Part shown: positions 23,112 through 24,839 of the stretch, piece after piece
Layout of the letters: every line of letters begins with the position of its first letter
Position numbering within the stretch: position 1 is the stretch's first letter
Virus record (IMG/VR): IMGVR_UViG_3300020042_006220
Coordinates: 1 to 26,060 of that record
Source of the DNA: a virus
Taxonomy: Duplodnaviria; Caudoviricetes
Reading direction: 5' to 3' (one strand)
DNA length: 26,060 bases
Position numbers and translations under genes: made by a program
The notes under the pieces: generated by a model
What the model saw: only the letters and a program-made list of their open reading frames with translations
What the model was told of the DNA's origin: nothing
Database searches by the model: none

Positions 23112-24227
23112 TTACAACTCCGCGCTGGCTACCCAGCCATACTGAAAAGGATTATTGGCATCGCCCCCGCTGGGAATAAAACTTCTTTCGCCAATAAAAG
23201 CCGCTGCCCCATTGGTAAATATAAAACCATCTACGGATTTTCTAACTCTGCCAACAGCCGGACTTGTTAACGGGGCGTAGATTGAAACTGTTGGCGCGGT
23301 TCGCATTGGCACAGTAAAATTAACGGATGCGGCATTAACAGAGTTGCAGTTTGTAAATTGTGCCCCTGTTTGTGTAACAGACAAGCTATCAGGACTAGCT
23401 GGCGTACCACCACTTTGAAATGAAGTTGTAAAATACCGTTGTGCTAATTGCAGTTCCGTCCCATATGGCCGGTAGTCAAACGATGTGGCTGTGCTGCCTT
23501 TTTCAAGCTGTACGCCTGTGATGTAGAAAGTTGCTCCGTTTGTGCCGACTACGCTGGTTGCGCCTGTGGCTGATACATAAAATCCAGACTGCCATGAACC
23601 AGCAGTAGTGCTGACAGATGAGCCAGCACCAATGCTCAAATACAGAAAAATGCCACCGTTGTTATCTTTAGCCCAAGAGCCTGTAGTATCGCCAGCAATA
23701 GTTATGGTTTTATATTCCCAAGTGTTTGCAGAAGATATTGTGTAGGTGAATGCGTAACTTCTATCCCCAGCGTTATTTCCTACCGCACCACCAAATGTTC
23801 CGGTTAAGCTAGAACGAACCCAAAAAGATATGGTAACGGTTGAAGCACCAGCCGCCCCCCATCCCAAGTCAGCAACATTCAAACCTTCAATGGGAAATCC
23901 GACCATAAAGCGGTCAGTAGAACCTGCCGTGTAAGCAGAAGAAGATGTCGCGCCGACATAGTTAATAAATCCGCTTGGAGGTGTTACTGAACCAGCATTT
24001 TGTTGGACTGTAAATTTAGAAGTTTGCGTGTAGTAAATTTTGCATCTATCTACTGCATAAATAGAAGTCCCGCTTGAAGTGCTAACACTCGCCCCAGCAT
24101 TCCTCTGGTCAATCACACACCCTCCATTGATTATACGATTTTTAAAACCGAAACCAGTTGCGGCTGTTTTCTGAACAGATAGATCAGGGTATGTAACCCC
24201 ATTTGTTCCATCTACGCTAATAGACAT
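23112..24227 (-). CDS. Tail fibre / receptor-binding protein with carbohydrate-binding-like domain
   Basis: [61 protein letters not shown]. Confidence 0.88.
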
Positions 24228-24739
24228 GCTTGCTCCTTGCGTTGTTTATGCCATGCTTTGATTGATTCAGAGCGTTTAAGTTTAGTAGCATCAGACTGCA
24301 CTTGATTCTTGTGACTTTCTGACATTTTAGTTCTGCTCTCAGCAGAAGCCTTCTTACCTTTGTTTGGATGAACTGGAACATTAGCCCAATGGCGTTTCTG
24401 TTGTTCACTCATCTTCTTGCGTGTTTCTAAAGAAACTGTTCTACCTAAGTTTGGCTTATGGCTAACAATCTTACCTCGTCTACCACCATCTTCTAAGTTG
24501 TAGCCTAGTGGAGTCTTAGTAGCAAGTACAGCAATCCAAAACTTCTCAAAGCAATCCATCTGCATTTCAGATAATTCACCTTCAGTTAAACAAGCATACT
24601 CAAACGAATAAAAGCCATGCTTTTTGTAGGCTTTCTTCATTGCGTGTCCATGCCCATGCCGTGAATGCTTTGTAATTGTTTGACCAACATATTGTTTATT
24701 GTTAATCAAATTAGTAACACAGTAGATACGTCCGTACAT
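24212..24739 (-). mobile_element. Free-standing GIY-YIG homing endonuclease with NUMOD3-like repeats
   Basis: GRIYCVTNLINNKQYVGQT, EKFWI..GYNLEDGG, and repeats SLETRKKMS / SAESRTKMSESH / SDATKLKRS; start at 24739. Confidence 0.9.
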
Positions 24740-24740
24740 A

Positions 24741-24839
24741 TTAGATGATGCGGTTCTTGAAGCCGAAGCCCGTGGCAGCGGTGTTCTGTACGCTGCTGTC
24801 TGCAAAGGTGATGCTCTCACCGCTTACTGCTACGGTCAT
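24741..24839 (-). pseudogene. Orphaned original 5' end of the tail-fibre gene (32 codons)
   Basis: [32 protein letters not shown] matches the fibre N-terminus ..[17 protein letters not shown]. Confidence 0.88.

Follow-up and report, generated by a model that had tools for sequence, protein, structure and literature searches.

A free-standing GIY-YIG endonuclease and a replacement 5′ gene end in a putative phage tail-fibre gene: evidence pointing to intronless homing

Introduction

Why should a putative tail-fibre gene of a phage begin twice, with an endonuclease gene between the two starts? This question is raised by a virus record of 26,060 bases, estimated to be 63% complete, the whole of which is referred to here as the window. 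Its tail module lies on the minus strand, as do all features of the window described below unless the strand is given. Other parts of the window encode a DUF7227 protein (1088-1768, plus strand), a DnaB-like helicase (7142-8197, minus), a GH108 endolysin (11594-12109, minus), a Gp10_C-like tail protein (18575-19144, minus) and a virion protein (21303-22922, minus) with distant similarity to virion proteins of Pseudomonas phages and 73% identity to one from an uncultured Caudoviricetes record. A preliminary description, made by reading the sequence, held that the endonuclease arrives with a new RBS and a recoded gene start, and that the fibre gene is thereby repaired without splicing. Here, this proposal is examined against natural alleles of the gene and related endonuclease loci.

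Organization of the locus

The locus opens with a small tail-module gene of 71 aa (24836-25051), which weakly matches phrog_22737, of unknown function. Its 3′ end contains the RBS of the recipient (GAGGAG, 24853-24848), and its stop codon overlaps the start of the next reading frame (ATGA). That frame is the stub, i.e., the original 5′ end of the recipient's fibre gene as judged by its matches to intact alleles; it comprises 32 codons (24744-24839), the last of which encode FKNRII. It is closed by a TAA (24741-24743) that stands 1 nt ahead of the ATG of a free-standing GIY-YIG endonuclease of 175 aa (24212-24739). An AAGGAG RBS (24233-24238), located within conserved RKE codons of the nuclease, precedes the second fibre start, and the fibre ORF itself (24227-23112; 371 aa) overlaps the end of the nuclease ORF. 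The first 37 codons of this ORF (MSISV...; 24117-24227) form the replacement 5′ end, and the remainder (23112-24116) is the fibre body. A gene of 51 aa follows (22955-23110), of a type also found after endonuclease-free fibre genes.

Re-reading of the sequence confirmed the arrangement originally reported, namely the stub (24839-24741), the nuclease ORF one base on (24739-24212) and the second fibre start, as well as the AAGGAG at 24238-24233. An assembly artefact is an unlikely source of this arrangement, because contigs of sequencing run X8 match positions 24090-24227 with 0 differences and 24229-24484 with 6 differences. It should be noted that 0 single contigs of run X8 span the junction between stub and nuclease, and that most of the nuclease is without coverage in runs X1 and X3, which weighs neither way. 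A promoter scan returned 3 candidates against 3.0 expected, which is the chance level.

Natural alleles delimit the foreign segment

The exact 33-base stub pattern was found at 5 viral loci, all of which are uninterrupted fibre genes with no nuclease at the site. Intact alleles of the stub region include L040, L041 and L043, the last being 96.5% identical to the stub region over 115 nt. The most informative allele is L125, an endonuclease-free locus that is identical to the last 34 nt of the stub and matches the body from 24116 on at 478 of 480 positions. Between these two parts, L125 has 12 bases, encoding NGAM, that are absent from the window. The foreign piece is thus 24743-24117, a cassette of 627 bp that occupies the place of 12 recipient bp and consists of the stop codon, the nuclease, the RBS and 37 new codons ending in NGGC. 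The preliminary description had ended the foreign segment at 24129; the comparison with L125 moves this boundary to 24117, four codons beyond FKNRII, where two residues are changed (NGAM to NGGC).

Run X8 provides a second view of such alleles. Its contigs contain the endonuclease-free joint of 24116 to 24744 with the same 12 recipient bases, at a depth of 125.6; one contig (record 30) carries the new 5′ end of the window (24090-24227, 0 differences) on an unlike body, and part of the nuclease is also present. Together with L125, these alleles indicate that the stub and the body belong to the recipient and that the cassette alone is foreign. The mobile unit originally proposed, a nuclease with a new RBS and a new N-terminus, is therefore borne out by L125, by the cassette pairs described below and by the run X8 contigs. 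None of the endonuclease-free relatives has a stub. The nuclease is, moreover, optional: it is lacking from L125 and from the run X8 alleles, and among the matches listed 2 of 126 motif-selected fibre loci carry it, one more having been dropped for its short flank.

Could the nuclease instead be part of a self-splicing intron, whose removal joins the stub to the body in RNA? The stub and body are indeed in register with the intact allele, and nuclease-bearing introns can occur in phage structural genes (PMC10055350). Precise splicing cannot restore the allele, however, since 12 recipient bases are absent; in addition, the stop codon of the stub and the start codon of the nuclease are 1 nt apart, the junctions vary among related loci, and half of the clusters have no stub. 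An Rfam search of 22000-26060 gave no intron match at E ≤ 5, only two chance matches, so that neither a ribozyme core nor any other sign of a splicing element was seen, in line with the original claim of repair without splicing. In RNA run X20, the two sides of a joint are separated by 12 other letters, so that the joint represents another allele, not a splice. Judged from these sequences, an intron appears very unlikely, and we give it a minimal probability.

The fibre gene

The 371-aa ORF matches phrog_4492 (tail fiber protein; E 2.4e-46) over profile positions 783-1096 of 1096, i.e., its C-terminal part. Its relatives are annotated as tail fiber or carbohydrate-binding proteins in phages of Synechococcus, Methylophilales and Pelagibacter. 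A Pfam search of the ORF gave no match, a search of solved structures found no relative, and in the nearest Atlas cluster to have a family, CBM_4_9 is found in 12% of the members. By these annotations, the product is a putative tail fibre or virion protein. The ORF is of full length, its 371 aa comparing with 364-370 aa in the intact alleles L041-L044.

Fibre genes of this family are also mosaic at the same block without any nuclease, as seen in L040 versus L043 and in joints within run contigs. Differing bodies alone are therefore no proof of homing. The similarity of the window fibre to L125 itself stops near 23425, and a second mosaic boundary lies at 23425-23606, at the ...YRPYG block, where many contigs start or stop.

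The endonuclease

The 175-aa ORF matches phrog_314 (homing endonuclease; E 1.6e-27). In Pfam, NUMOD3 is above the cut-off and GIY-YIG slightly below (20.6 vs 22.6 bits), but the GIY-YIG motif is recognizable as RIY...YVG, and E65 and N81 align with the Glu and Asn of I-TevI. The protein carries NUMOD3 repeats and ends in a C-terminal WHKQRKEQ, and WH..RKE is present in 116 of 121 aligned nuclease proteins. Its best match in both sequence and fold is the I-TevI catalytic domain. The structure was predicted twice, the first prediction being of low confidence; the top fold matches are 1MK0 and 1LN0 (E 1e-3 to 1e-2, target TM 0.57-0.60).

Alignment of the profile to I-TevI reveals a 10-residue deletion over helix 1, which makes the catalytic domain about 10 residues shorter, and no helix is predicted for residues 22-31. 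Helix 1 bears the catalytic R27 of I-TevI (PMC12774661). Position 27 is R in the window and R or K in 29/29 short-clade sequences, versus K, P, Q or R in the long clade (both clades are defined below); the long clade has R/K32 and R58, each in 30/30. Across 59 distinct catalytic domains, Y17, G19 and H30 are invariant (59/59) and Y6 is present in 58; E65 and N81 occur in 58/59, one row being out of register. The median dN/dS of the catalytic domain is 0.11 in both clades, calculated from 42 non-independent pairs each, none of which includes the window, whose nuclease has no partner close enough for such an estimate. Taken together, the sequences suggest that the enzyme is likely active.

Among 50,697 annotated phage records, no close relative of the nuclease was found, the best-ranked match being 37% identical and all lying below 60%; there is consequently no cultured host to associate with it.

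A family of related loci

Pattern and profile scans yielded 113 locus records including the window. Five cut ones (L247, L052, L058, L059 and L061) were set aside, and the remaining 108, some of which come from the same contigs, form 49 clusters at 90% identity. Since the set includes the best 80 of 331 stretches, it leans towards close relatives. In 42 of the 49 clusters, the nuclease directly precedes a member of the fibre family, 55-137 nt before an (I/L)(I/L)NG...IDQ motif; the other 7 precede other genes. The 42 fibre-linked clusters comprise 16 of a "short" clade, to which the window belongs (171-176 aa, three of 152 aa), 23 of a "long" clade (215-221 aa) and 3 whose N-terminal domain is of another kind. 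A support of 100/99 sets the short clade apart from the other nucleases, and stubs are found on either side of this split.

Stubs were found via the nuclease and not via a stub pattern; a GFKNRII-stop pattern scan of viral contigs gave 6 matches, none of them a stub. Counted by eye in the 42 clusters, 17 stubs have at least 19 codons, 4 have 6-10 codons, and 21 clusters have none. The original placement of the insertion at FKNRII|NG holds for the window and L211, with the stubs of L213, L216 and L225 ending 2 bases further; family-wide, the junction varies. Near-identical cassettes stand behind different upstream genes in L001, L002, L056 and L071.

A stub might also be a functional N-terminal tag, frameshift-fused to the nuclease, that carries the nuclease onto the virion. 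In L263 (1926-2654), a 24-codon fibre stub is in fact fused in frame to the nuclease, giving an ORF of 242 aa. Against this stand the other 16 of the 17 long-stub clusters, whose stop codon either overlaps the nuclease start or is at most 5 nt away from it, the frame differing between clusters; we attach a negligible probability to such a tag. The stub of the window is, in our reading, probably now a translational leader and a left homology arm.

Several variants in the collection are of interest in their own right. L001, L002, L056, L063, L067 and L071 share one cassette that has a 10-codon stub of its own (MTTSIGGTTV-stop) behind various upstream genes, with a crossover at the start codon. 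A sister nuclease clade of 198-204 aa (L281:2001-2615, L282:2001-2606, L283:2001-2597, L284:2001-2597, L286:1929-2525 and L289:2001-2597) precedes a different small tail-module family (MAG..., SAKAW-like). Its nucleases begin with MAGT or MAGH behind a host-type RBS, so that the "stub" looks like nothing more than an RBS with the first codons, joined in frame; the strategy is the same, the target another. In L055 (1751-2530), and also in L057, L072, L073 and L074, a different N-terminal domain (KYFCKT...Y(K/T)GSG, no Pfam match) is joined to the NUMOD3/WHKQRKEQ C-terminal half and the fibre cassette of the other loci, a probable nuclease-domain swap. Finally, replacement N-termini of similar sequence (MPPVTIDG...MKN(K/R)IINGACV and MPIVLDG...) are found behind nucleases of both the short clade (L219/L222) and the long clade (L253/L275), which suggests that nucleases have been exchanged on one cassette end between the clades.

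The right end of the cassette

How far the cassette extends into the fibre gene can be read from pairs of related loci. Of 29 within-cluster pairs, 19 are identical at 85 or more of the 90 bases that precede the motif. Counted from the first Ile base, identity collapses after 23-57 nt in 13 of these 19 and at 170 in one; the remaining 5 show no collapse over the short stretch that could be compared. In 14 of the 19 pairs, near-identical cassettes are followed by different bodies. Thus, the cassette normally does not carry the fibre body. The preliminary description had suggested that co-conversion could drive receptor-binding domains between phages; given this collapse of identity, carriage of the fibre body was rejected as the usual outcome.

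The position of the cassette also bears on whether an active nuclease might cut elsewhere, in a gene nearby or in the DNA of a competing phage; the cassette would then have entered by rare illegitimate events, with changes in the motif as hitch-hikers. Free-standing endonucleases of T4 do cut hundreds or thousands of bp from their own genes (PMC2988022, section 7), and the window keeps the sequence CAATG at the presumed target (see below). Upstream genes and bodies vary freely around the cassette, though, and the constant linkage is to the motif block only, which is bracketed by the left and right junctions. Cutting elsewhere is, accordingly, quite unlikely in our estimate.

Target sequence and its loss in linked alleles

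The original claim that the replacement start is a synonymous recoding was based on 17 codons shared with the end of the stub. The counts were reproduced (of the 17 positions, 16 agree in the residue and 3 in the codon), and the difference is largely synonymous over this stretch; beyond it, two residues are changed (NGAM to NGGC), so the recoding is not purely synonymous. As stand-alone evidence of directed recoding, the figure of 3 in 17 was rejected. With a GC3 of 0.75 against 0.24 in the two sequences, unrelated synonymous choice is expected to leave 3.9-4.0 shared codons, and the probability of 3 or fewer is about 0.4.

It is the comparison with real endonuclease-free GFKNRII alleles that makes the low sharing extreme. 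The replacement start of the window shares 1 of 7 codons with the stub in this block, and just 1 of 29 such alleles shares as few. Across KNRIINGAM, the window cassette differs from the recipient allele L125 at 10 of 27 bases, including GCG ATG to GGG TGT, and in the family as a whole the motif of replacement starts shows the substitutions N>S, R>K, I>L and M>C. When the endonuclease-free loci with at least 100 nt upstream were compared with 58 cassette ends, none attained an identity of 68/81 to any of them, i.e., no nuclease-free resistant allele was seen.

The original interpretation gains support from the specific loss of the common target in linked alleles: a core 17-mer, AAYMGNATCATCAAYGG, is present in 44/77 distinct endonuclease-free alleles and 26/45 held-out ones, versus 2/57 distinct linked alleles (L230 and L057, which keep the whole core). 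With one member per cluster and a body GC3 of at most 0.3, the corresponding counts are 24/47 free and 0/28 linked. N>S is found in 11/42 linked alleles versus 1/77 endonuclease-free and 0/45 held-out ones, and M>C in 12/42 versus 0/77 and 0/45; the motif M is kept in 74/77 endonuclease-free alleles.

The two clades have lost different parts of this block. CAAYG is present in 55/77 free alleles, 2/25 short-clade and 11/28 long-clade ones (short vs long, p 0.011), and AAYMG in 71/77, 23/25 and 9/28, respectively (short vs long, p 1e-5). The stub ends, scored by eye, reach the Ile codons in 6/7 short versus 0/8 long clusters (p 0.0014). It should be noted that clusters share ancestry, so that these p-values overstate independence. 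I-TevI cleaves CNNNG and I-BmoI NNNNG (PMC12774661), and in the light of these preferences each clade appears to have removed its own N4G pentamer, with its stubs ending at or before the G of that pentamer. The cleavage motif predicted for the short clade is CAAYG (Ile2-Asn-Gly), and that predicted for the long clade is AAYMG (Asn-Arg). CAATG is retained in 2 exceptional short-clade alleles, one of them that of the window. The latter is one base off the degenerate core, so that its presumed resistance must rest on other changes.

These clade-specific losses also bear on passive modular recombination, in which an inactive or domesticated GIY-YIG gene, for example a DNA-binding regulator, rides along with an AT-rich fibre N-terminus and the stubs are accidental leftovers. 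Plain divergence is compatible with the 3-in-17 count, fibre genes are mosaic without nucleases, and the helix-1 deletion, together with the lack of an invariant Arg27 among long-clade proteins, would fit a nuclease that no longer cuts. Codon bias, on the other hand, can explain neither the loss of different pentamers in different clades, nor the substitutions at otherwise near-invariant residues such as the motif M, nor the shift of stub ends with clade; the conserved active-site-type residues and a dN/dS of about 0.11 likewise do not fit an inactive gene. On balance, we regard passive recombination as unlikely.

Comparison with known systems

The closest published processes are cases of intronless homing in T4 (the seg and mob genes; PMC2988022, PMC2790892), above all mobE. 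In both, a free-standing nuclease lying outside any intron or intein directly precedes its target gene, the site is in the 5′ part of the target (mobE nicks T2 nrdB at nt 122-126; PMC2790892), the donor allele is polymorphic there, and host expression signals are embedded in the nuclease ORF. Unlike mobE, which is of the HNH type, the nuclease described here is GIY-YIG/NUMOD3. The target differs as well, being a repeated, mosaic tail-fibre-domain family instead of a conserved enzyme gene; moreover, the left flank is often non-homologous here, stubs are left, and the right tract extends only about 20-60 nt past the site.

As for the exchange of a gene end, the nearest analogues are mobile ORFs of fungal mitochondria with duplicated carboxy-termini (Allomyces atp6; Glomus atp6, atp9, cox2 and nad3; PMC3630166). 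Both they and the present cassette carry a divergent end of the host gene that restores the ORF without splicing and orphans the native end. The fungal elements place a 3′ end before the nuclease, whereas here a 5′ end and an RBS follow it; furthermore, the present case is from a phage and not an organelle, with clade-specific amino-acid changes in the target. Thus, the cassette works like these gene-end replacers but is not a member of their group, as it supplies a 5′ end and occurs in a virus record.

Homing endonuclease gene islands of ICP1-like phages (PMC10055350) likewise place nuclease genes beside structural and tail genes, and they contain small gene fragments homologous to full-length cargo that were proposed as recombination substrates, as is suggested here for the stub. 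In those islands, the cargo consists of whole operons lying between two nucleases, whereas the single nuclease described here brings about 35 codons with it. In the main text of that paper, "tail fiber" has 0 occurrences.

The mobE-split nrdA of Aeh1 and the mobA-split topoisomerase of T4 (PMC2988022) also have a nuclease in a coding region without an intron. Those genes stay split, and their polypeptides reassemble. The likeness to nrdA drawn in the preliminary description fails at this point: a full-length ORF has been restored, the start is duplicated, and the stub is redundant.

With respect to the enzyme, the I-TevI/I-BmoI catalytic domain (PDB 1LN0, 1MK0; PMC12774661) is the best match in sequence and fold, and an N4G-type motif fits the depleted pentamers. 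The present nuclease differs in its NUMOD3 repeats, in not being intron-encoded, and in the roughly 10 residues missing from helix 1 and its loop, which constitute the motif-preference block of I-TevI.

Proposed mechanism and significance

In our opinion, the observations are best accounted for by intronless homing with a resistant replacement 5′ end, a 5′ mirror of the 3′-end replacement of fungal mitochondria; we hold this reading with good, though not full, confidence. The mechanism would be as follows. The nuclease would be a free-standing GIY-YIG homing endonuclease specialized on a block that is conserved close to the start of a tail-fibre-domain gene family widespread among phages. The mobile unit, as delimited by allele comparison, consists of its gene, the RBS in its last codons and a short fibre N-terminus reaching through the target block. 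During co-infection, the nuclease would cut an endonuclease-free allele within the KNRIING block. As the junctions show, the right crossover falls in the IDQRNAGAS codons just beyond the presumed cut, and the recipient keeps its fibre body.

On the left side, two outcomes are represented among the junctions. Where the upstream gene or the start codon matches, repair would take place there, leaving no stub. Otherwise, the cassette would be joined at the cut end by microhomology or at the end of an existing stub; one-sided repair with microhomology junctions is known for T4 homing (PMC2988022, section 5). Joining at the cut end would strand the 5′ end of the recipient as a stub, whose stop codon would couple its translation to that of the nuclease. 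The cassette copy, through synonymous and non-synonymous changes associated with it, would presumably resist cutting. Once present, the FKNRII end of a stub could act as a left arm; this would account for the junction that the window and L211 have in common despite their different stubs.

A more far-reaching view, which we put forward tentatively and consider rather doubtful, is that a helix-1-truncated GIY-YIG clade with a rebuilt active site is a dedicated parasite of the junction between N-terminal segment and body in a tail-fibre domain of many unrelated aquatic phages. Competing sub-clades would cut at two sites offset from each other and thereby impose amino-acid changes on a conserved structural motif; the breaks would be a main engine of shuffling between N-termini and bodies and so of fibre mosaicism, even in progeny without the nuclease.

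No description of this arrangement in tail-fibre genes was found in the literature searched, which covered few subscription journals and no supplements, so that an earlier mention is possible; the accessible portions of PMC1564403, PMC12724721, PMC3322345 and PMC7344957 contain no such case.

The locus and its relatives point to a splicing-free route by which a phage homing endonuclease may enter a coding sequence, bringing a resistant 5′ end and an RBS with it. Replacement of the gene start is a recurring process at the level of the family and not a one-off event, and from the natural alleles two cut sites can be predicted with an uncertainty of a few bases. Provided that the enzymes are active, a GIY-YIG domain without most of helix 1 would be a compact natural variant at the cleavage-preference block of I-TevI. 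The process accounts for the small ORFs with a "duplicated start" that are treated in annotation as pseudogenes, and it is a candidate cause for part of the tail-fibre mosaicism of aquatic phages.
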